From: Verrucomicrobiota bacterium
GTDB lineage: Bacteria; Verrucomicrobiota; Verrucomicrobiia; Verrucomicrobiales; DEV007
Assembly: GCA_045046875.1 (NCBI GenBank)
Contig: JASFYY010000037.1
Span: forward strand, 96,509 to 160,508
Direction: 5' to 3'
DNA length: 64,000 nt
Part shown: positions 6,702 through 64,000 of the stretch, in pieces
Layout of the letters: every line of letters starts with the position of its first letter
How positions within the stretch are numbered: position 1 is the first letter of the stretch
Notes under the pieces: generated by a model
Seen by the model: only the letters and a program-made list of their open reading frames with translations
Told to the model about the DNA's origin: nothing
The model's database searches: none
Program-made: the position numbers and the translations under genes

Positions 6702-8192
6702 TCACTGCACCGGTGCAGCAAGGTAAGACGCCCGTGACAGCACCTTGAACCAGCTCGGCTTTTCTTCCACATCCGCCTCTGTCATCAAGCGTGAGTTGGC
6801 GAAGTCCTTTTTAAACATTTGTTCAACATCGGATACGAATTTTTCATCAACAACCAGAGCCGTCACTTCGAAATTGAGCCGGAACGAACGGTTATCGAAA
6901 TTGGCAGTTCCCACACCCGCAAGGTGATCATCGACCAGGAATACTTTTTCATGCAAAAAACCAGGCTCGTAGCGATAAATTTCGATACCCGATTTGATCA
7001 GCTCCCCCACAAAAGCATAAGCGGAAAAATAAACCATTTTGCTGTCAGGTTTTTCAGGAATGATGACTCTAACGTCCACTCCTCGCAACTCGGCCAGATG
7101 CAACGCCGCCATCACCCCCTCATCGGGCACAAAATAGGGACTGGCAATCCAGATCCGCTCGTGAGCGGAATGAATGGCCTGTTGATACATAAGGCTACAG
7201 CTCTCCAAACGGTCAGCGGGACCCGTCGGCAGAATAAGCACGCTTGCATTGCCCTCTTTGGCAGCGGTTAACTTCCAAGGCAGGTCAAGTTTTTCATTCT
7301 GCGCCCAACGCCAATCTTCAACAAAGGATAACTGCAGTTGCAAGGCTGATGGGCCTATAATCTTCATGTGAGTATCCCTCCAATCGGGAAACTTTATCCC
7401 CTTGCCAACGTACTCGTCCCCCACATTATGTCCGCCCACCCAACCCATCCTACCATCCACCACCACAATTTTTCGGTGATTACGAAAATTCAGCTGAAAA
7501 CGATTTCCACCTCCTTGGGTCGAATGAAAAGGACTCACCACTACACCGGCTTCTCGCAACCCTTTGACATACCCATCGATCTTACGCGTGCCGATTTCAT
7601 CATAAAGAAACCAGACCTTCACCCCCTGCTTTGCTCTGGCAATCAGGTGTTCCTTTAGCTTGCGCCCCAAGTCATCATCCCTGACAATATAAAACTGTAC
7701 CAGAATGTATTCCTCGGCCTCATCAATCCCCTTCAATATACTGTCAAAAGTCGCTTCCCCGTCGATCAATAATTCAACCGCATTCTGGTCAAAATAAGGA
7801 AGTTGCGCCAAACGTTCCATCGCTCGCCCACCGCCGTGTTTGCCATCAAGCACTCTGACATAAGGCTGCATCCTCTGTCGGATTTTTTCCAACTCATCCT
7901 CGGATTTAAGGGCCAATTGCTGGCGCAAAGTCACATAGCCTTGAAATTTATTACGCCCAAAAACCCAATAAGCCGGCACAGCAACCAGCGGCATCGTATT
8001 TAACGAAACAATCCAGGCGATAGCTCCCTGGGAAGTTCGGGTACTCATCAAAGCATGAAAAGATGAAATGACTCCCAGCGCATGAGCACATAACAATGCT
8101 AGAGCCATTTTTCGACTGCGAAGCCCCTGTGGTTTCTTGAAACTTTTCTCTATATCAAAATCGCTCCCTATTCGACTATGTTTTTCTGGCAT
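6702..8192 (-). CDS. cls: Cardiolipin synthase
   Basis: N-terminal TM hairpin, two HKD motifs (HRKIVVVD, HEKVFLVD), SPYFVPD, GTANFDNRSF; exact start uncertain. Confidence 0.92.
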   Translation of the reverse strand: MPEKHSRIGSDFDIEKSFKKPQGLRSRKMALALLCAHALGVISSFHALMSTRTSQGAIAWIVSLNTMPLVAVPAYWVFGRNKFQGYVTLRQQLALKSEDELEKIRQRMQPYVRVLDGKHGGGRAMERLAQLPYFDQNAVELLIDGEATFDSILKGIDEAEEYILVQFYIVRDDDLGRKLKEHLIARAKQGVKVWFLYDEIGTRKIDGYVKGLREAGVVVSPFHSTQGGGNRFQLNFRNHRKIVVVDGRMGWVGGHNVGDEYVGKGIKFPDWRDTHMKIIGPSALQLQLSFVEDWRWAQNEKLDLPWKLTAAKEGNASVLILPTGPADRLESCSLMYQQAIHSAHERIWIASPYFVPDEGVMAALHLAELRGVDVRVIIPEKPDSKMVYFSAYAFVGELIKSGIEIYRYEPGFLHEKVFLVDDHLAGVGTANFDNRSFRLNFEVTALVVDEKFVSDVEQMFKKDFANSRLMTEADVEEKPSWFKVLSRASYLAAPVQ

Positions 8193-56059: not shown

Positions 56060-57070
56060 ATGACCTTATCCAAACTCTTCAGCCCAGTCACCGCACTTAT
56101 CGCCATCAGCCCCCTCTTGCTACTGCCTCACGCCGCCCGTAGCCAGGCCGTAGACAAAAACGGCATCGAAAGAAGCCCTGAGGAAATCAAAAAAGCCATC
56201 AGCGTCGTCGAGCAAAGACTCGAACGCCAACAAAGCCGCGTCTCCGACCTTCGCGCTGAACTGATCCGCCTCGACGGTCGTATCGAAAAAGAAGTCGACC
56301 AAATCGTCAAAGCACTTGAAAAAGTCGGCGACTCCAAAGACTCCCGCACCCGTGTCGCACAAACCAAAGGCGAAGTCATCGAAGGCCTGAAAAAAAGCAT
56401 CGGCATCTATCAACAAAAACGCTCCCAGATTCGGGCGCATCTAGTCAAACTCCGCTCCGGAATGGAAAAATCCGAACTCGAAGGCGATATGAAAAAATTT
56501 GATCAAATGTCGGAAAAACGCATCGAGCAAATCATGGAACTTTCCAAAACCCTGACCACCCACAAAGATTACAAAAAATACAACACCTACGTCTCCTCAA
56601 GCAATGACTGGGGGTGGGGATGGGGAACCGTTCAAGAAAAAAACGAAGACTACACCCAAAACAAACGAGTCACTAACATCACCGACAAAGAACGCAAAGA
56701 GGTGGTCGCGGCTTTACAAAAAAGCATCGCTGATCTAGGCACCCAGAACCGGGCTTTGAAAGCGCGTCTTGACTCCTCCAACTTCGCCAACCAGAAAGAT
56801 CTGATCCAGGAAGACATCGAGAGAAACCAACAAGTCATAGGCCGGCGCGAAGCCCAGCTCGAAAACATGTTAACTGCTCCCGCTCCCACCACCACCGCCA
56901 TCAGTCGCAGCGCCGCCCATCAAATGCAGCTCATGATCCGCGACATCGCCGACGACCTGAAACGTGACTTCGACACCCTCTTCCGCCGCTATTCCGAATT
57001 TGTAAAAGAACGTGCCCAAAGCAACGCCTTGATAGAACAGCTGGCCGATTTGAAAAAAATGCTCAACTAA
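56060..57070 (+). CDS. Secreted coiled-coil protein (paralog A)
   Basis: Signal peptide, heptad-rich; shares motifs with 57114-58100. Confidence 0.8.
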   Translation: MTLSKLFSPVTALIAISPLLLLPHAARSQAVDKNGIERSPEEIKKAISVVEQRLERQQSRVSDLRAELIRLDGRIEKEVDQIVKALEKVGDSKDSRTRVAQTKGEVIEGLKKSIGIYQQKRSQIRAHLVKLRSGMEKSELEGDMKKFDQMSEKRIEQIMELSKTLTTHKDYKKYNTYVSSSNDWGWGWGTVQEKNEDYTQNKRVTNITDKERKEVVAALQKSIADLGTQNRALKARLDSSNFANQKDLIQEDIERNQQVIGRREAQLENMLTAPAPTTTAISRSAAHQMQLMIRDIADDLKRDFDTLFRRYSEFVKERAQSNALIEQLADLKKMLN

Positions 57071-57113
57071 ACGGACTGCCCCCACCGCACCCCACACCTC
57101 ACTCTGGCAAAAA

Positions 57114-58100
57114 ATGAAACTACCTACCTTACTGATCACCGTAGTCGCCGGCTTCAGCCTGAACACGGCCACCTCACTAGGTCAGGACAGCAGCAAACCC
57201 GACCCAGCAACGGTCAAAGAAGCCATCGACATCGTCAAAACCCGACTCGAACGCCAAATGCGACGAGTCTCCGATCTGAGCGCAGAGATCATCCGCCTCG
57301 ATACCCGCATCGAACGGGAAATCGCCTACATCGTAAGTGATCTCAGCCAGGTAGGAGACTCCCGTGACTCCCGCACCGAAGTCGCCAAGCTCAAAGAAAA
57401 AGTTACCGCAGGTCTCAAACGCAGCATCGAAAAATACCAGCGGATGCGCGCGCAAGTGAACCTCGAATTGCAAAACACCCAAGCCGGTCAAACCCGGCAG
57501 GACTTAAAACAAGACCTCAAGCAGTTTGATACGCGCATTGCCAATCGGGTAGATCAAATCGTCAGCATCAGTCAATCCCTCACCACCCAAAAAGACTTCC
57601 AGGCCTACAACGACTACTTGAGGGATACCCGCTACGACCGCACCCACCACAGCGAAATCAATCGCCTGAAAAGCATGGAAAAAACCCAGAACAAACGAGT
57701 CACCCAAGTCACCGACAAACAACGCAAGGACACCATCGATGCGCTCAAACGTAGCATCGCCAGCCTGGAAAACCAAAATAAAGCGCTCGCCTCCCAACTG
57801 AATTCCATCCAATACGCTAAGCAGTCAGACATCATTCAGGAAGATATCGACCGCAACCGCCAAGCCATCATGAACCGGGACGCACAAATCAGCACGCTGC
57901 AAACTTATCAACAGAGCTTCACCATCGAGATCAGCCGGCGAGCTGCCAAAGAAAAAGAAAACCTCATCCGCGACGCCGCCACCTCCCTGAAGCGCGACGT
58001 CGACACTCTCTTCCGCTACTACACCGAGTTCCAAAAAGAGCGCAAACAACAAAACGGCCTGATGCAACAATCACAAGCCCTGCAAGCCCTACTCCCGTAA
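57114..58100 (+). CDS. Secreted coiled-coil protein (paralog B)
   Basis: Shared with paralog A: RLERQ.RVSDL, VGDS.DSRT, TQNKRVT, IQEDI.RN, LKRD.DTLFR. Confidence 0.8.
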   Translation: MKLPTLLITVVAGFSLNTATSLGQDSSKPDPATVKEAIDIVKTRLERQMRRVSDLSAEIIRLDTRIEREIAYIVSDLSQVGDSRDSRTEVAKLKEKVTAGLKRSIEKYQRMRAQVNLELQNTQAGQTRQDLKQDLKQFDTRIANRVDQIVSISQSLTTQKDFQAYNDYLRDTRYDRTHHSEINRLKSMEKTQNKRVTQVTDKQRKDTIDALKRSIASLENQNKALASQLNSIQYAKQSDIIQEDIDRNRQAIMNRDAQISTLQTYQQSFTIEISRRAAKEKENLIRDAATSLKRDVDTLFRYYTEFQKERKQQNGLMQQSQALQALLP

Positions 58101-58139
58101 AAACAAATCCCCAAATTTGCTATTACCATCCCACCACAA

Positions 58140-58445
58140 CGTGGCACGGATCGCTAGCCGAGCTGTAGCCTTCAAGTCGAAGGCAGTGCAATTTGCCGTG
58201 GCGCGGATTGGTAATTTGCCTTCGGGTAGTTTCCTTTGGACGCTACGCTCAACCCTGCTGGTTGCCTGTCTTGCTTCGCTGCGGCTGGCTCTCTCCTTTC
58301 AGTCGAGTGCGGATCCCCAACCCCACGCAAATACCATTACGTCCCACACCTCCTCCTCCCCATCGTGGCGCGGATTGGCAATCCGGCGGATCCCCCAAAC
58401 CACCCCAAACCCCACGCAATACCATTACGTCCCACACCGCCCCTC
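58140..58445 (+). repeat. Composite repeat R1 (core 58213-58317, plus an 'empty' REP copy at about 58364-58395)
   Basis: Core AATTTGCCTTCGGG…CTCCTTTCAGTCGAGTGCGGATCC is near-identical in R2-R4. Confidence 0.92.
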
Positions 58446-58477
58446 ACCTCCCCACTTCATTCTTCAGAATTCCTTGT

Positions 58478-59326
58478 TCAATTATTGCCTTCGAGTCGTA
58501 TTCTCCGACTGTCTCGCAGACTCAGCTCAACATTCCCCACCTCAACCCGATATTTCACCCCTGACCTGTGTTTTTGCTGCGCATTGTCCAAAAGTAGACG
58601 CACCCGCGTCGTTCCACTCGACGAATCTGTCACCGGACTGACAAAAGCGACTTCAGCGCTGCCCGCCTCGTCCCCCACCATCGCTCTCACCGCCACCTTC
58701 TGCCCCACTTTCAGACTTCCTACCATCTCCGCATCCACATAAATCACCAGGATCAACTGATCCAGACGCACCACCGTCATCACCAGATCCGATCCTCCGC
58801 CGACCGCCTCCGCTTCATCACGAAAAGTGCGCTCCACCACCCCATTGATCGGACTGATCAAAGTCCGCCGCTCAATCTGCACCTGGATCTGACCCACCTT
58901 CAAGCCATTCTCCTCCGCCTGCACCTCCGCCTCCATCAGGTCGGCTTCAGTGATCTCCACCTCCGCCTTGGCCCGGAACAACTCATCCGCATTCACCCCG
59001 CCTCCCTCTGAAATGCGTTCCAGTTCCGCCAAACGACGACGCTTGGTGCTCAACCTCGCCCGCGCCGCCTTTTGCTCCGCATCGCTTTTCGCCCGCAGTT
59101 GAGCGATTTTCAGCGAAACCTCCAAAATACGATTATCGAGCTTGGCCAACACCTGCCCTTTTTTTACCGTCTCCCCCTCCTTCACCGCCAGTTCCGCGAT
59201 CACCCCCGCCTCGGGGAAAGTCAAATCCACCTTCTCAACCGGCTCAGTCACCCCGATCACCTCACCACCTACCAAGCTCAACCCGGTCAACCAAAGCACC
59301 CCACAACTAACAATAAAAAACTTCAT
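58478..59326 (-). CDS. RND/ABC efflux periplasmic adaptor (membrane fusion protein), standalone
   Basis: GVIAELAVKEGETVKKGQVLAKLD, ISPINGVV, VSPVTDSSSGT; start set at MKFFIV. Confidence 0.88.
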   Translation of the reverse strand: MKFFIVSCGVLWLTGLSLVGGEVIGVTEPVEKVDLTFPEAGVIAELAVKEGETVKKGQVLAKLDNRILEVSLKIAQLRAKSDAEQKAARARLSTKRRRLAELERISEGGGVNADELFRAKAEVEITEADLMEAEVQAEENGLKVGQIQVQIERRTLISPINGVVERTFRDEAEAVGGGSDLVMTVVRLDQLILVIYVDAEMVGSLKVGQKVAVRAMVGDEAGSAEVAFVSPVTDSSSGTTRVRLLLDNAQQKHRSGVKYRVEVGNVELSLRDSRRIRLEGNN

Positions 59327-59399
59327 ATTCCTAAAAACAATTATCCCCCCCACTGTCCCAAACTGCAATAGGAAAAGCTCTCCCTACCCGCACAATACC

Positions 59400-59765
59400 A
59401 TTTACTTGTCCTCCACAGCCTGTCAGGCGATGGAGGATCCCACACTCAGCCCCTCCCCATCGTGGCATGGATGGCTTGTCCTCCATAGCCCCTAGGGCGA
59501 AGGCGGGGCAATTTGCCTTCGGGTAGCTTCCTTTGGACGCTACGCTCAACCCTGCAGGTTGCCTGCCTTGCTTCGCTGCGGCTGGCTCTCTCCTTTCAGT
59601 CGAGTGCGGATCCCCCAAAACCACCCCAAGACCCGCGCAATGCCATTACGCCCCACATCCACCAAAGCCCACCAGGCGACGGAGAATCATCCATCCCCCC
59701 CTCAAATCCCTTCCCATTCGTGTTGATTCGTGTCCATTGGTGGTTCCCCATCTCAAATCCCCCCC
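59400..59765 (+). repeat. Composite repeat R2 (core 59510-59614)
   Basis: About 250 bp shared with R3; 3' part shared with R4. Confidence 0.92.
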
Positions 59766-59769
59766 TCAT

Positions 59770-59807
59770 TTGACTCCACCTTCACCATGTATTACAATGT
59801 TTTACAT
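59770..59807 (+). promoter_or_regulatory. sigma70 promoter with overlapping palindromic operator for the AbrB-Doc TA; leaderless mRNA likely
   Basis: TTGACT(59770)-17 bp-TACAAT(59793); TGTATTACA and TGTTTTACA palindromes; ATG at 59806 with no RBS. Confidence 0.7.
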
Positions 59808-60036
59808 GACGAAGACTGTTACTAAAATTGGCAATTCCAAAGGCATTATTCTTGATTCAGCCTTGTTAGAGCTTGTCCATTGGAAGGAAGGCGACCAGTT
59901 GTCAGTAACGATGCACGACGGAGGCAGCATCACTTTTACTCCGCTAAAAGCATCTATAAAACCCGAGCAAGCCGCCGCATTGACGGATTCGATTATATCG
60001 AGCAATGATGAATTGTTCAGCAGACTTGCAAAATAA
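59806..60036 (+). CDS. AbrB/MazE-type antitoxin
   Basis: VTKIGNSKGIILD…WKEGDQL swapped-hairpin motif; TAATG overlap with toxin. Confidence 0.9.
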   Translation: MTKTVTKIGNSKGIILDSALLELVHWKEGDQLSVTMHDGGSITFTPLKASIKPEQAAALTDSIISSNDELFSRLAK

Positions 60037-60437
60037 TGCCTGCCCCCAAACACTTGAGTGTCGCTGCAGTCAAACAGATCCACTCAAGAGTGATCCATGC
60101 CCATGGCGGTGATGATGGATTGAGAGACGAAGGCCTACTGGAAAGTGCAATCGCCGCTCCACAGGCTACTTTTGCAGGTGAGGACATCATGGCCGACCAC
60201 ATTGAAATAGCGGCAGCCTACCTTTTCTACTTATGCAACAACCATCCTTTTGTTGATGGAAACAAACGCACCGCACTCGCTGCCTGCCTTGTTTTTCTCG
60301 TTTCCAATGAAGTTTTATCAGAGCAAACCGTATCTGCCTTGGATATTGATACCTGGGAAAGGCTAATCCTCAATGTTGCTTGCTCCAAAATTGACCGTGG
60401 GGAAACGACTAAAAAACTTCGTGACCTGCTAAAATAA
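60036..60437 (+). CDS. doc: Death-on-curing (Doc) family toxin
   Basis: GLRDEGLLESA; HPFVDGNKRTA Doc-type Fic motif. Confidence 0.92.
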   Translation: MPAPKHLSVAAVKQIHSRVIHAHGGDDGLRDEGLLESAIAAPQATFAGEDIMADHIEIAAAYLFYLCNNHPFVDGNKRTALAACLVFLVSNEVLSEQTVSALDIDTWERLILNVACSKIDRGETTKKLRDLLK

Positions 60438-60454
60438 ATCTGCCCCCCTCCCCC

Positions 60455-60735
60455 ACGCAATACCAAATACCATTAGCTTGCCCGCCAAAGTCTGTCAGGC
60501 GACGGAGGATTCCACATCACCCCCCTCCCCATCGTGGCATGGATTGCTTGCCGCGCCATAGCCCCTAGGGCGAAAAGGGGGGCAATTTGCCTTCGGGTAG
60601 TTGTCCTTTGGACGCTACGCTCAACCCTGCAGGTTGCCTGTCTTGCTTCGCTGCGGCTGGCTCTCTCCTTTCAGTCGAGTGTGGATCCCCCCAAACCACC
60701 CCAAGACCCGCGCAATGCCATTACGCCCCACGCCC
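60455..60735 (+). repeat. Composite repeat R3 (core 60584-60689)
   Basis: Direct repeat of R2. Confidence 0.92.
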
Positions 60736-60739
60736 CCGA

Positions 60740-60767
60740 TTGACAAAAACGCCACCTGTGGTAAATT
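60740..60767 (+). promoter_or_regulatory. sigma70 promoter for the RHH-VapC TA; leaderless mRNA likely
   Basis: TTGACA(60740)-16 bp-TAAATT(60762) with extended TGn; ATG at 60773. Confidence 0.62.
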
Positions 60768-60772
60768 ACCCC

Positions 60773-61024
60773 ATGATAAAAGCGCACGTGCAAATACCCG
60801 ACGAACTTTACCGCGCCGCAAAAAAAGTAGCCGCAAGTAAAGAGTGGTCCTTTGCTGAAATAACAAGAAGAGGTCTGGAGTATATGACGAGCGTCAATCA
60901 AGTGCCCGCTACTCAGAGTGATTGGGCGTTGCCACTGGTAAAAGTAAAAGGGGGTAGACCCGTCAGTGAAAAAGCGCTCGAAGAAGCAAAAAACGCAGAG
61001 CGGGATGCCTCATTCCTGATTTGA
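60773..61024 (+). CDS. Ribbon-helix-helix antitoxin (VapB-like)
   Basis: AHVQIPDELYRAAK…SFAEITRRGLE RHH pattern, upstream of a PIN toxin. Confidence 0.82.
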   Translation: MIKAHVQIPDELYRAAKKVAASKEWSFAEITRRGLEYMTSVNQVPATQSDWALPLVKVKGGRPVSEKALEEAKNAERDASFLI

Positions 61025-61046
61025 GAAGCTCCAACAAACAACACCG

Positions 61047-61487
61047 ATGCTGAGCATTGATACCAATATCCTTTTCTATGCCATGGTTGAAAACAGCCAA
61101 TTTCACGAAAGTGCGCGGTATTTTTTGAATCAACATGCCAGAGACACTGAAATGGCGATGTCCGAACTCGTATTGGTAGAATTATACAATCTGCTACGCA
61201 ATGACAAACTGACCGGCAGAAAAACAAGCGCCAGCGAAGCCGCGCAGTGGATACAGCAGATACGCTCGAACCGCGCATGGAGCTTAATCGAAAATGCCCC
61301 CATCATGGAAGAAGTCTGGAACATAGCAGCTCAAGCCCCCTTTGCCCGTCGCCGCATTTTCGACGTCCGCCTCGCTCTGACCCTCCACCATCATGGAGTC
61401 ACCCATTTTGCCACTGCCAATACCAAGGATTTTCAAGGCTGCGGATTCGAAAAAGTTTGGAACCCGTTGAAAAACAAAAATCCCTAA
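61047..61487 (+). CDS. vapC: VapC PIN-domain ribonuclease toxin
   Basis: IDTNIL, E in LVEL, FDVRLA, TANTKDF: conserved acidic PIN residues. Confidence 0.92.
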   Translation: MLSIDTNILFYAMVENSQFHESARYFLNQHARDTEMAMSELVLVELYNLLRNDKLTGRKTSASEAAQWIQQIRSNRAWSLIENAPIMEEVWNIAAQAPFARRRIFDVRLALTLHHHGVTHFATANTKDFQGCGFEKVWNPLKNKNP

Positions 61488-61514
61488 TCCCCAGGAAAAC
61501 TCAAATGGGCAGGA

Positions 61515-61860
61515 CTGCTTGTCCTCCTGTGGCACAAATTACTAGCCGAGCTGTAGCCCAAGGCGAAGGCGGGGCAATTTGCCGTGGCGCGGATTGGCAA
61601 TTTTCCTTCGGGTAGCTTCCTTTGGACGCTACGCTCAACCCTGCAGGTTGCCTGTCTTGCTTCGCTGCGGCTGGCTCTCTCTCCCGCGAATGCGGGATCG
61701 AGTGCGGATCCCTCATACCCCCCCCAAGACCATTACGCCCCACATCCCTCCCTCAAATCCCCTCCCATTCGTGTTGATTAGTGTAAATTTGCCTTCGGAC
61801 AGTAAGCTCCGGCTGTCTCCTTTTAGTCGGCTGTGGTTCCCCATCTCAAATTTCTCATTT
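61515..61860 (+). repeat. Composite repeat R4 (core 61599-61712, plus mini-core 61786-61832)
   Basis: Upstream part matches R1; terminal hairpin replaced by CCCGCGAATGCGGG. Confidence 0.9.
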
Positions 61861-61891
61861 TAAATCTCAATTGATTACGAAGGCCTTGCTT

Positions 61892-62104
61892 TTGACAAAA
61901 ACAACTCATATTCGATAATGGAAATCGCTACGCAGCAGGAGTAATACCATCAAAACATAATTATTATTCCTCAAAATAAGCGTATTTTAATATTTTTTCC
62001 TCAAAAAAACGGATTATCCTACGATTTATCCTTTACTAAAGCTTAAGCGATAATGTAATATTTTTTTCATACATTTCGCTTTTTTTAATAATTTTTCCTC
62101 AAAA
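61892..62104 (+). promoter_or_regulatory. Putative fic promoter plus AT-rich ~30-bp periodic repeat array
   Basis: TTGACA(61892)-16 bp-GATAAT(61914); TTCCTCAAAA at 61967, 61997 and 62095. Confidence 0.5.
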
Positions 62105-62118
62105 ATAAAGGTTTTTCC

Positions 62119-63603
62119 ATGAAGCAACTCGGTTACACATGGCTGATCTCCCACTATAAGCTCAAGGTTCGCCCTCTGTTGCACAGTTCATTCATAGGAA
62201 CACGGCAGGCCATCAGAGAGTGTGCGGACGGCACTTTGGAGGAACACTACGTCAGCCGCTACGACCCCGGAGACGATCCACTCGACCATATTGTGTTCGC
62301 GCTAAAATACGACGAGCTGGATCTTGACATCATGGCTAAGGTTTTTCAGAAGATTTCTCCGGAGAAAGTGGCTGAATTTGTGGCTCGGACTCCGACTGGA
62401 AAGTTTGCTAAGCAAATCGGATTCTGGTTCGAAATGCTGACCAGCCAGGAAGTTCCGCTACAGGGAAAACTTATCGGCAACTACACTCCCTTGCTGGACC
62501 CGCAACGCTATGTCGTTGCTTCAGGGCCGGTTCGAAATCCACGGTGGCGAATATTGAATAACGCTATCGGTGATCGACGTTTCATGCCAATCATTCGACG
62601 AACAAAGGCGATTCGCTCTATTGAGGAAACTGATTGGGAGGGACTCATCTCGGAAACCATAAGCCCTTTCTCCGATGCAGTGCTCAATCGCGCTCTGTCA
62701 TACCTCTATTTCAAGGAAACCAAATCCTCGTTCGCCATAGAACGAGAAGCACTAGGCACAAATAGAACCGAGAAGTTCGTCACCCTCCTTCATCGCGCCG
62801 GAACAGAAAATAAACCACTCAGTGAAGGGTCTCTCACTGAACTTCAGAACGACATCATGGATGCGCGTTACCAAGAGAGTGGTTATCGAACCATTCAGAA
62901 CTACGTCGGCGAAACCACGGTTAACTTCCGCGAGATAATCTATCTGATTGGCTCCCCGCCCGGCTTCCTTCGAGATATTATGGAAGGCTTGGAAGGATAT
63001 TTTACCGCGAGTGCGGGGGTTCACCCCATTTTGCGCGCCGCAGCGATCTCGTTTCCGTTTGTCTTTATTCATCCATTCGAGGATGGCAACGGACGCATCC
63101 ACCGATACATCATCCACGACGTCATGGCCAGAGGCGGAATCGGCGGCAAGGGGCTTGTCATCCCTGTGTCAGCCGAAATCTTGGCAGACATGAGAGCCTA
63201 CGACACCTGTTTGGAACAATTCTCCAAACCTTTACTCTCGGTAGCCGAATACGACCTCAACACCAAAAGTGAGATGACAGTCGAGAACCCAGCTATGATC
63301 GAGGGGTTCTACCGTTACCCGGACGTAACGCAACAGGTTGAGTATCTAGCTAAAATGATAGAACTTGCGATCCAAGAAAGCCTTCCCAATGAGTTCCGCT
63401 TCCTCGAAAATCTCGACCAAGCCCGTCAAACAATACGAGAGATTGTGGACATGCCAGACAGGAAACGGGAATCCCTGCTTATGCGGCTACATCGTAATAA
63501 GGGTAGGCTTGCCAGTAAACGTCGTGAAAGTGAGTTCAAAGAGCTCACAAACGAAGAAATCCAGAAGATTGAGCAAGCGTTTCAAGAAGCGTTCAAAGAT
63601 TAA
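62119..63603 (+). CDS. Fic family protein (large, ~490 aa type)
   Basis: Canonical HPFEDGNGRIHR motif; ETKSSFAIE; C-terminal IVDMPD helical domain. Confidence 0.92.
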   Translation: MKQLGYTWLISHYKLKVRPLLHSSFIGTRQAIRECADGTLEEHYVSRYDPGDDPLDHIVFALKYDELDLDIMAKVFQKISPEKVAEFVARTPTGKFAKQIGFWFEMLTSQEVPLQGKLIGNYTPLLDPQRYVVASGPVRNPRWRILNNAIGDRRFMPIIRRTKAIRSIEETDWEGLISETISPFSDAVLNRALSYLYFKETKSSFAIEREALGTNRTEKFVTLLHRAGTENKPLSEGSLTELQNDIMDARYQESGYRTIQNYVGETTVNFREIIYLIGSPPGFLRDIMEGLEGYFTASAGVHPILRAAAISFPFVFIHPFEDGNGRIHRYIIHDVMARGGIGGKGLVIPVSAEILADMRAYDTCLEQFSKPLLSVAEYDLNTKSEMTVENPAMIEGFYRYPDVTQQVEYLAKMIELAIQESLPNEFRFLENLDQARQTIREIVDMPDRKRESLLMRLHRNKGRLASKRRESEFKELTNEEIQKIEQAFQEAFKD

Positions 63604-63720
63604 ACATCCACCCTCACACTTCACACTTCAAACTTCCCCCTCATCTCATTTTCTCACCCCTAACTAAAACCATCTTCATCCTGCCCGTCCATGCCAGTCC
63701 CCCATCATTTCTTACCTTCC

Positions 63721-63830
63721 TTTGCCTTCGGGTTATTTCCTTTGGACGCTTCGCTCAACCCTTCAGCTTGCCTGTCTTCTCCCGCAGACGCGTGATACGG
63801 CTGGCGGGCTCCTTACCGTCGGTTGCTCTT
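63721..63830 (+). repeat. Diverged core repeat R5
   Basis: TTTGCCTTCGGGT…TCCTTTGGACGCTTCGCTCAACCC…TTGCCTGTCTT…CTCCTTACCGTCG. Confidence 0.85.
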
Positions 63831-63881
63831 CTCTGTATTCCTTCGTAGCTTCTCAAAAACAACTTGTCAAGAATTGTTGCC

Positions 63882-63909
63882 TGACCCCATTTTCGTGACC
63901 CCATTTTCG
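63882..63909 (+). repeat. 14-bp tandem duplication of a REP half-site
   Basis: TGACCCCATTTTCG x2. Confidence 0.85.
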
Positions 63910-63910
63910 G

Positions 63911-63947
63911 GTAATTTGCCTCGTGGCGCGGATTGGCAATCCGCGGA
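63911..63947 (+). repeat. R6: core 5' end plus intact REP palindrome
   Basis: GTAATTTGCCT followed by GTGGCGCGGATTGGCAATCCGCG. Confidence 0.75.
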
Positions 63948-64000
63948 TCGCCCGCTCGCCCGCTCGCCCGCTCGCCCGCTCGCCCGCTCGCCCGCTCGCC
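63948..64000 (+). repeat. 8-bp tandem repeat (TCGCCCGC)n, at least 6.6 copies, running off the window end
   Basis: Read directly from the sequence. Confidence 0.95.

Follow-up and report, generated by a model that had tools for sequence, protein, structure and literature searches.

Does a short hairpin that occurs both intact and interrupted mark the insertion site of a mobile element? The question is raised by a 64,000-nucleotide (nt) stretch of DNA from an uncultured Verrucomicrobiota bacterium (the window, meaning the whole stretch analyzed), which forms the end of contig C37 in a 5.59-Mb, 163-contig draft genome (G000; 51% G+C, 94.7% complete). Between 58.1 and 64 kb, composite repeats are interleaved with small genes, and a core of 93 to 102 nt interrupts some copies of a palindrome of the repetitive extragenic palindrome (REP) type. 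The original prediction on this DNA took the core for a mobile mini-element that targets the arms of REP hairpins. The core is best explained as a mini insertion element, non-coding and non-autonomous, from a family that is specific to the genus and here called S, and represents a rarely described kind of very small mobile repeat; a probability of roughly 0.55 is given to S being a discrete insertional mini-element family. The predicted mobility is supported by the discreteness of the module, its dispersal over about 50 loci and its presence or absence at orthologous sites in G005, a close relative whose flanking genes are 93-97% identical to those of G000.

The filled form consists of GTGGCGCGGATTGG[T/C]AAT, the core and GCGGATCC, and it occurs at 58198 and 61584. 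The first of these copies, R1, shows GTGGCGCGGATTGGTAAT (58198-58215) followed by the core TTGCCTTCGG...CAGTCGAGT (58216-58308) and by GCGGATCCCC (58309-58318); the second, R4, has the same layout at 61584-61601, 61602-61703 and 61704 onward. Uninterrupted hairpins are found at 58365-58395 (GTGGCGCGGATTGGCAATCCGGCGGATCCCCC) and 63923-63949 (GTGGCGCGGATTGGCAATCCGCGGATC). The strings quoted in the original prediction, two filled (58198, 61584) and two empty (58365, 63923), are present at these places, and the downstream tail that it regarded as common to both forms, CCCCACGCAA(A)TACCATTACGTCCCACACC, does follow the R1 filled copy (58322-58352) as well as the empty copy (58409-58438). A MAFFT alignment (A2) of eight copies, three of them filled and five empty, drawn from the window, contig C6 and G005, places them in one register. 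In this alignment, GCGGATC and the first 18 columns are invariant, except for the alternation of T and C in GG[T/C]AAT, and three states of the REP, namely, empty, with a short S and with the long core L, share the single register. As the original prediction noted, no target-site duplication is visible in the REP context. A 38-nt seed from the core has 3 matches in the window, compared to 0.00 expected from 100 shuffles, and the 20-nt palindrome, with up to 3 mismatches, has 3 matches compared to 0.01 expected; chance origin of the core and palindrome matches is excluded.

The copies R2 (59462-59616) and R3 (60534-60691) are also hosted by REPs, with the insert at the same position as in R1 and R4, and their left arm is itself split by a 33- to 35-nt hairpin of a second family, T; all four long cores therefore lie at one site. 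The 23 nt GTGGCGCGGATTGG[TC]AATTT[GT]CC are present in R1 and R4 and absent from R2 and R3. The empty and filled junctions differ by CC (63923 type) or CCG (58365 type), and the relation between the two forms is therefore not that of a clean insertion. From the orthology with G005, the host of the R1 core could equally be the unit at 58141. The repeat features of this part of the window, with the palindromes abbreviated to REP, are the following.

58141..58197, plus strand: REP-type unit GTGGCACGGAT[34-nt hairpin insert, T3 variant]GCAAT, then TTGCC; orthologue of the first REP past the upstream gene in G005
58198..58215, plus strand: R1, GTGG-tagged REP hairpin, left arm with loop (GTGGCGCGGATTGGTAAT)
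58216..58308, plus strand: long core L of R1, 93 nt, an S-family element TTGCCTTCGGGTAGTTTCCT ... CTCTCTCCTTTCAGTCGAGT with a nested inner module
58236..58286, plus strand: inner module I, 51 nt, TTGGACGC...GCGGCT, with the hairpin CAACC-loop-GGTTG inside
58309..58352, plus strand: right remnant of the REP (GCGGATCCCC) and C-rich tail with a second hairpin (CGCAA.TACCATTACG)
58365..58438, plus strand: intact (empty) REP hairpin and tail
58485..58528, plus strand: S-family element, heptamer-context subtype
59462..59512, plus strand: REP left arm GTGGCATGGATGG ... GCAAT, split by a T hairpin at 59475-59507 (R2)
59513..59605, plus strand: long core L of R2, then GCGGATCCCCC
59730..59749, plus strand: empty decamer-type site GTGTCCAT-TG-GTGGTTCCCC, counterpart of the filled site at 61789
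60534..60586, plus strand: REP left arm split by a T hairpin (R3)
60587..60680, plus strand: long core L of R3
61584..61601, plus strand: REP left arm GTGGCGCGGATTGGCAAT (R4)
61602..61703, plus strand: long core L of R4, with the S loop replaced by the mini hairpin CCCGCGAATGCGGG (61683-61696)
61789..61832, plus strand: plain 44-nt S in a decamer-type site (GTGTAAAT-[S]-GTGGTTCCCC)
63722..63824, plus strand: divergent L-like copy R5
63923..63949, plus strand: intact REP palindrome GCGCGGATTGGCAATCCGCG, GTGG-tagged and with 0 mismatches, 51 nt short of the contig end

A further arrangement at these sites is the junction GGYAATTTGCC(TC)GTGGCGCGGATTGG, in which a fragment of the S head is immediately followed by a fresh REP. 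It is found at 58190-58215, 61575-61601 and 63910-63935, at C6:35073 and at about position 8010 of the G005 locus L021, and a duplication, a truncated S or a recombination scar are candidates for its origin.

The host hairpin has the form GTGG-[C/A]-NCGGATTGGCAATCCGN and is of the REP type. Its palindrome GCGGATTGGCAATCCGC forms the stem-loop typical of REPs, with a stem of 6-7 bp, the outer pair of which covaries between copies as G-C, A-T or C-G. The tetranucleotide GTGG, one of the accepted degenerate forms of the REP tag GTAG, precedes the stem in the 36 intact copies, under a pattern that accepted G or T at the first base. The regular expression for the left arm yields 164 matches in G000, which comprise 36 intact hairpins, 7 that continue into a TTGCC-type sequence, 16 in loop-insert classes and 105 that are unrelated. 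Six of the seven TTGCC-type matches carry S or L, and the one at C6:35073 has only TTGCCTC and then a new REP; inspection of the loop-insert classes shows 9 matches to be genuine and 7 to be unrelated coding sequence. Sorted by state, 36 REPs in G000 contain neither insert, 6 contain S or L only, 1 contains T only and 8 contain T plus S or L. Copies missed by the expression are those on C131 (S or L only) and on C87 and C95 (both inserts), and the total comes to about 53 REP copies, intact and interrupted. The REP copy number is often quoted as >100, according to an excerpt of the literature (PMC2817692), a figure that the count in G000 does not reach. Looser expressions (4609 matches, reduced to 256 after filtering, and 323 in another case) were too noisy for counting, and stricter patterns were used instead. 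The original prediction named variable endpoints of the empty form as a sign of random deletion, and all 36 intact copies show the same junction, GG[CT]AAT-CCG, so that variable endpoints are not a feature of the empty forms. At least eight combinations of host and insert use the identical nucleotide position. The REP variants involved have GCGGAT, ATGGAT or CCGGAT arms, with or without T, and host L, S2, S3, S4 or S1-like inserts. No gene for a REP-associated tyrosine transposase (RAYT) or other Y1 enzyme adjoins the flagged REP among the 15 matches to PF01797 in the 163-contig draft; the nearest lies 12 kb away on C141.

Copies of one REP hairpin subfamily, GTGGAACGGATTGGCAATCCGTTTTCTT, have a run of thymines behind them (for example at C41:23845, C108:6174 and C142:4774-5151) and look like intrinsic terminators. 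On C142, this subfamily forms a five-copy tandem array with a period of about 94 nt.

The original prediction treated the core as one element, a view that has to be given up: it is a composite of S and a nested 51-nt inner module, joined in R4 by a 14-nt hairpin. The S family is defined by its 20-nt head TTGCCTTCGGGTAGTTTCCT and has 56 copies in G000 after filtering, a few of them spurious. A plain S is about 44 nt long, as at 61789-61832, and is built from the head and a short hairpin (CCGGCTG, a variable loop and CGGCT), with a constant 3' end of GGCT or GAGT. [quoted passage not shown] The long cores correspond to the short form at C6:30295 plus 51 nt: in alignment A2, the block TTGGACGC...GCGGCT (58236-58286) replaces the CC that follows TTTCCT in the short form. 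The exact short form is found in a metagenome contig, in which 58235 is joined to 58287 with CC in between. The contigs of this kind, X1-X4 from related strains, were used for their joints, many of which may derive from paralogous copies, and their depth or the absence of a sequence from them is not interpretable. Four genomes of the genus contain the inner module. Nesting extends to R4, where the 14-nt hairpin CCCGCGAATGCGGG stands in place of the S loop (A2), and to C37:55804/55832, where one S lies inside another. The T family, about 33 nt long (30-35) and starting with CTTGTCC, interrupts the loop of the REP, with GGATTG on one side and GCAAT on the other, in R2, R3 and at other places. 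A strict pattern for T and T-like elements (CTTGTCC... or CTTGACCGCCGTAGCC...) finds 58 copies, including those at 59405-59437, 59475-59507 and 60547-60581 of the window. Their insertion places are REP loops, the tail hairpin and a precise position inside decamer arrays (CA-[T]-TCCGCG).

Comparison of orthologous sites shows S to come and go as a discrete block. At the position of L in the window, the first REP past the upstream gene in G005 is filled with T and keeps its right arm intact (GCAAT-CC-GCAGATCC), and the G005 orthologue of the unit that is empty at 58365 carries a 33-nt T within its loop and, within its tail hairpin, a T-like hairpin of 33 nt. The S at 58485-58528 is absent from G005 and from metagenome contig X1, which joins 58443 to 58529; the orthologue of the S at 61789 contains about 29 additional nt in its loop in G005. 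The G005 genome has 30 loci with S (37 matches; reversed-pattern control, 0), 10 of which were aligned to G000. At five of these (L045, L048, L052, L053 and L054), S is present in G005 and not in G000, with AATAATT-TCAAATC as the empty site at L048; the other five (L033, L035, L047, L058 and L059) have S in both genomes or are uninformative. Copies found only in G000 are two additional ones at C83, one at C94:16302 as a 52-nt indel with flanks identical over 25 nt per side, and one at C38:734 with the context CAT-[S]-GCG. Nested growth is seen at a REP site on C146: the S of G005 is plain, and 77 nt stand instead of CCAGCTGTT in G000. The host arrays change as well, with decamer units at C94:19004 that are all GCG in G000 and all GTG in G005.

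The family is confined to one genus among the genomes searched. The S head, with up to 3 mismatches, is found 49 times in G000, 37 times in G005, 76 times in G003, 8 times in G001, 3 times in G002 (73% complete) and 0 times in G004 (91% complete), compared to 0-2 matches per genome for a reversed-pattern control; 35 genomes searched outside the genus gave 0 matches. The flagged stretch of 133 nt has matches in 5 of 41 genomes, all from the one genus. The relatives recovered with a protein of the window are metagenome bins of Verrucomicrobiota/Verrucomicrobiales. A limited literature search on verrucomicrobial repeats and REP targets found no published description of the S family.

The claim that the element targets REP hairpin arms stands in part. 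The REP arm is one host, but most S copies in G000 lie outside REPs, in arrays of ATCCGYG-type decamers or TCAAAT heptamers. The decamer arrays follow the scheme cTTATCCGCG-cNCATCCGCG-aAATCCGCGGTTaaa, with S in the context ...GYG-NNNAT-[S]-GYG..., and the heptamer context is ...CAAAT-[S]-TCAAAT. The 3' arm of the REP, CAATCCGCGGAT, resembles the decamer unit. S occupies a single fixed position in host repeats that share an (A/C)AT-CC-GYGG motif, represented by GGCAAT-CC-GCGGAT in REPs and by the ATCCGYG decamers. Two bases of the empty site are absent when it is filled, as can be seen from AAT-CC-GCGG in REPs and from AAT-CC-TCG in the decamers of G005 compared to CAT-[S]-GCG in G000, and the step from S to L loses the same dinucleotide (CCT-CC-GGCT). 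The left flank of S ends with AT in 43 of the 56 copies, and the bases ahead of it vary (CTAAT, CCCAT, CAT and TTAAAT). GTGC or GCG bounds two of the orthologous indels (C94:16302 and C38:734). GYG was considered as a target-site duplication and rejected: left and right match in about 11 of 17 copies in decamer context, which is near chance, and the motif belongs to the host repeat. The junctions fit a mobile unit with a loose 5' boundary; they also fit slippage or template switching that adds and removes whole S-bearing units inside arrays. At 141 loci (177 matches), for example at 59716-59749, there are tandem 10-nt arrays of the type TTATCCGCG / TTATCAGTG / ATTCGTG ... ending with GGTT.

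The genome shows a strong strand asymmetry, with a GC skew that is extreme throughout C37 (-0.12 to -0.32 in every 10-kb bin) and a median absolute skew of about 0.2 around repeat loci. Long open reading frames (ORFs) are distributed nearly evenly, with 1122 of 2089 on the G-rich strand and 967 on the other. For S, 34 of 43 loci (25 of 34 contigs, p=0.009) have the TTGCC strand on the C-rich strand, and T-like elements show this placement at 44 of 50 loci (32 of 36 contigs). Intact REPs lie on the C-rich strand at 18 of 27 loci, a bias that is not significant by contig, and decamer arrays without S do so at 108 of 141 loci (63 of 79 contigs, p about 1e-7). This pattern suggests that single-stranded DNA at the fork has a part in the whole repeat system. 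Replication-linked strand bias has been described for the single-strand transposons of the IS200/IS605 group of insertion sequences (IS), as given in parts of two reports (PMC6006769, PMC5027513). G000 has 15 PF01797 (Y1_Tnp) matches above the family cutoff, and in a multicopy family of transposase-like Y1 proteins of about 350 residues with an HUH motif, 12 of 13 genes lie on the G-rich strand, a placement opposite to that of the repeats. Members of the latter family are located on C1, C2, C8, C18, C29, C43, C50, C55, C63, C85, C88, C109 and C141. They share a conserved upstream motif starting with TTTTAA-GGGGAGGATCCCC, their similarity stops at the stop codon, and the relatives have 5-44 copies, fragments included.

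These observations can be combined in a proposed mechanism. Copies of S would arise through insertion at the DNA level, tied to single-stranded DNA at the replication fork, with the hairpins proposed to serve as a recognition feature. The likeliest agent would be an HUH/Y1 enzyme acting in trans, for which the genome offers about 15 transposase-like Y1 genes; this enzymatic route, taken by itself, is put forward tentatively. The route would be either such an enzyme or microhomology template switching.

Several points weigh against an insertional family mobilized in this way. Filled sites lack the CC of empty sites, which is not the product expected of IS200/IS605 insertion, a footprint-free process. 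In the cleanest indels, 3-8 variable, host-like bases (CTAAT, CAT or TTAAAT) move together with S, and repeats of 3-4 nt bound the indel; such moving host bases are less expected of a transposase with fixed ends than of slippage or template switching. Most of the REP-hosted S copies are parts of larger composite units that are near identical as wholes (C35, C77 and twice on C128) and therefore are not independent insertions. Decamer arrays without S are as biased in strand as S itself, so that the bias does not single out S and may be inherited from the host repeats; its use as proof of single-strand transposition is weakened accordingly. No autonomous element with S-like ends was found in the flanks of 11 Y1 genes, other transposase families not having been searched, and no S, T or flagged REP adjoins any Y1 gene among the 15 PF01797 matches of G000. 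The copy numbers of Y1 genes and S across the six genomes were tried as evidence and give a loose relation only, with 8 Y1 matches and 0 S in G004. Finally, the genomes compared are all metagenome bins, and each orthologous indel may be either a gain or a loss.

The alternative closest to these points does without dedicated transposition. S, T and the inner modules would be alternative segments of a modular repeat system, comparable to the linkers of bacterial interspersed mosaic elements (BIMEs) or to the modules of pneumococcal BOX elements, and would spread by replication slippage, microhomology template switching or gene conversion, with filled and empty forms as alleles of one unit. S is always in one register of the host unit, orthologous indels comprise S plus part of a decamer unit with GTGC or GCG microhomology at the bounds, and the decamer arrays evolve in concert (C94:19004), all of which this explanation would account for. 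The subtype of S also tracks the host, with GGCT-CAAAT in heptamers, GGCT-GYG in decamers and GAGT-GCGG in REPs; composites of REP, T and S recur as wholes, and no target duplication is demonstrable (about 11 of 17 matching GYG, near chance). It does less well with S at sites that are nearly without repeat homology (L048), with nested inserts whose internal positions are unrelated (behind GGCTGT within the S loop, or 5' of the stem and behind TTTCCT) and with a range from 0 to 76 copies among congeners that all have host-type repeats. Flanking homology of 3-10 nt is, moreover, too short for RecA-type conversion. As an account of the whole system, this explanation is possible though rather doubtful; microhomology-driven exchange between host repeats nevertheless stays a live alternative to true transposition, because two of the cleanest indels include a few host bases from the flank along with S.

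Two further explanations fit the data poorly. If the filled form were ancestral, the empty hairpins would be deletions of the core. Hairpin-forming inserts are prone to deletion, as textbooks have it, and some of the orthologous differences could be losses, but 36 of 36 intact hairpins combine the identical GG[CT]AAT-CCG junction with a perfect stem, the outer pair of which covaries as G-C, A-T or C-G. Since the CC of the 3' arm is missing from filled copies, deletion of the core cannot restore this stem. With 36 empty copies compared to about 17 filled ones, and with S in two further host contexts, ancestral filling is very improbable. Somewhat less remote, though still improbable, is a core that encodes a structured RNA or acts within an mRNA (for example as a small RNA, terminator or stabilizer), has variable expansion segments, is selected in the transcript and was duplicated together with the toxin-antitoxin cassettes that its copies separate. 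Conservation of the inner hairpin C(A/G)ACC-loop-GGT(T/C)G extends to 92.9% of cells, with two double changes from A-U to G-C among 14 inner-module copies from four genomes and a covariation score of 0.134 compared to 0.092±0.015 in shuffles, a value reached in 8 of 500 shuffles; palindromes covary under selection at the DNA level as well. By inspection, the S stem contains G·T pairs that are possible on one strand only, and by crude ORF calls S lies in 17 convergent and 6 divergent spacers, whereas its orientation is indifferent to neighboring genes in codirectional spacers (10 same, 13 opposite) and tracks the replication-linked skew. The region 57000-64000 has no relevant Rfam match at E values up to 1, the sole match, snoZ188 (E=0.91; 21.6 bits compared to a gathering threshold of 50 bits), lying elsewhere. 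The L core folds ordinarily on the plus strand (z=-0.72) and moderately on the minus strand (z=-2.2), and its copies differ by entire inserted blocks. An integron cassette array, whose attC sites have RYYYAAC ... GTTRRRY core sites at the cassette borders, was also considered, given that toxin-antitoxin cassettes alternate with the repeats: by eye, the inner module contains GCTCAAC with no GTTRRRY partner at the far end, no integrase search having been made, and the repeats are dispersed over many contigs.

Among known systems, the small dispersed repeats (SDRs) of Nostocaceae are the closest analogue of the S/T system. SDRs, the subject of Elhai et al. 2008, reportedly have units of 21-27 nt in named families, occur in tandem heptamer repeats and as nested copies, and are said to be mobile from a comparison of related genomes. 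Both systems consist of gene-less modules far below MITE size that use one exact insertion position in a short host repeat or palindrome, and S and T likewise show a fixed host position, self-nesting and presence or absence between related genomes. For SDR5, this position falls after nucleotide 3 and before nucleotide 4 of HIP1, as stated in excerpts of PMC4390886 / PMC5861425. The elements described here are longer (S, 44-52 nt; T, about 30-33 nt, compared to 21-27 nt) and, by length and apparently also by sequence, are not members of the SDR families. Their hosts are the GTGG-tagged REP hairpin and ATCCGYG decamers instead of HIP1, their filled sites lack a CC, and the phylum is Verrucomicrobiota. 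The available parts of the same sources report no SDR-like repeat outside Nostocaceae (PMC4390886 / PMC5861425).

The host hairpin resembles REPs, BIMEs and REPINs in being a short imperfect palindrome with dozens of intergenic copies and a 5' tetranucleotide tag, as far as excerpts of three reports describe them (PMC3116915, PMC2817692, PMC3333891). Most REPs of the verrucomicrobium Opitutus terrae have GTGG instead of GTAG, and REPs with linkers forming mosaics as well as REPs inserted within other palindromes have been reported, according to parts of PMC3733652. In contrast, the S/L core is neither a REP nor a REP doublet, and no RAYT gene flanked by the flagged REP is found in the draft genome. 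BIME linkers are not known as nested modules that are independently gained and lost. Insertion sequences that use REPs as landing sites, seen in an excerpt of Tobes and Pareja 2006 (PMC1525189), share with S the REP as a target at a defined position. These are, however, full IS with transposase genes, whereas the insert here is gene-less and 44-102 nt long, and the REP is one of three hosts.

Gene-less derivatives of IS200/IS605 elements are termed PATEs (palindrome-associated transposable elements). Like IS200/IS605 elements and these derivatives, S bears hairpins, here candidate end signals, has no inverted terminal repeats and shows no demonstrable target duplication; its orientation is biased by replication strand (34 of 43 loci), and Y1 transposase genes are present in the genome. 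The differences are that S shares its ends with no copy of a Y1 gene, that its 5' boundary appears loose, that a dinucleotide is missing at filled sites and that the strand bias is common to the host arrays. The footprint-free insertion at a fixed target of 4-5 nt, as in PATEs, is not seen with S: the bases before AT vary and travel with it, and the CC is absent.

Extending the insertional reading beyond S itself leads to a bolder and decidedly tentative picture. A hierarchy of self-nesting mini hairpin modules (S, about 44 nt; T, about 33 nt; the inner module, 51 nt; and the mini hairpin, 14 nt) in a hydrothermal-vent-associated genus of Verrucomicrobiota might have been written into fixed registers of REPs and tandem repeats by a previously undescribed, fork-coupled mechanism that exchanges a dinucleotide instead of duplicating a target, as a second, independent origin of very small mobile repeats. 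If this is true, such repeats, so far in print only for Nostocaceae, arose twice independently. How elements far smaller than MITEs move has been an open question since the cyanobacterial description, and a second, unrelated phylum would provide comparative leverage. The many orthologous filled and empty sites, the nesting levels, the strand asymmetry and the candidate HUH enzymes could make this question testable, with a GC skew of about 0.2 that makes strand-specific steps readable. The modules account for most of the length variation of intergenic spacers and flank variable toxin-antitoxin cassettes; they are therefore relevant to the assembly, binning and strain typing of these metagenome-derived genomes.

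The small genes interleaved with the repeats include one for a 494-aa Fic protein and the following.

58478-59368, minus strand: HlyD-type adaptor
60036-60434: Fic/Doc, with a 76-aa ORF ahead of Fic/Doc
61047-61484: PIN, with an 83-aa ORF ahead of PIN

The latter two pairs are toxin-antitoxin-like cassettes (59806-61484), each flanked by composite repeats of about 270 nt that are 91% identical to one another. Both cassettes are missing at the orthologous locus of G005, which has a Zeta-toxin cassette in another spacer (L021 9114-9850), and one metagenome contig joins 60446 to 61752. Tandem octamers of the type CTCGCCCG occupy 63950-64000 up to the contig end and may explain the stop of the assembly.

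Two RAYT-like genes elsewhere in the genome are associated with repeats of their own. The repeat TTGTCAAGAATTGTTGCCTGACCCC (window 63863-63892) occurs on >15 contigs, and inverted copies of it flank a single RAYT-like Y1 gene at C48:77480-78640; the repeat and this gene likely constitute a REP-RAYT pair with no relation to the flagged hairpin. Another RAYT-like gene, at C77:21574-24819 (L022), lies between direct copies of a repeat of about 90 nt that includes a GTAG-tagged hairpin, GTAGGAAAACCCGCGCTCC on the other strand.

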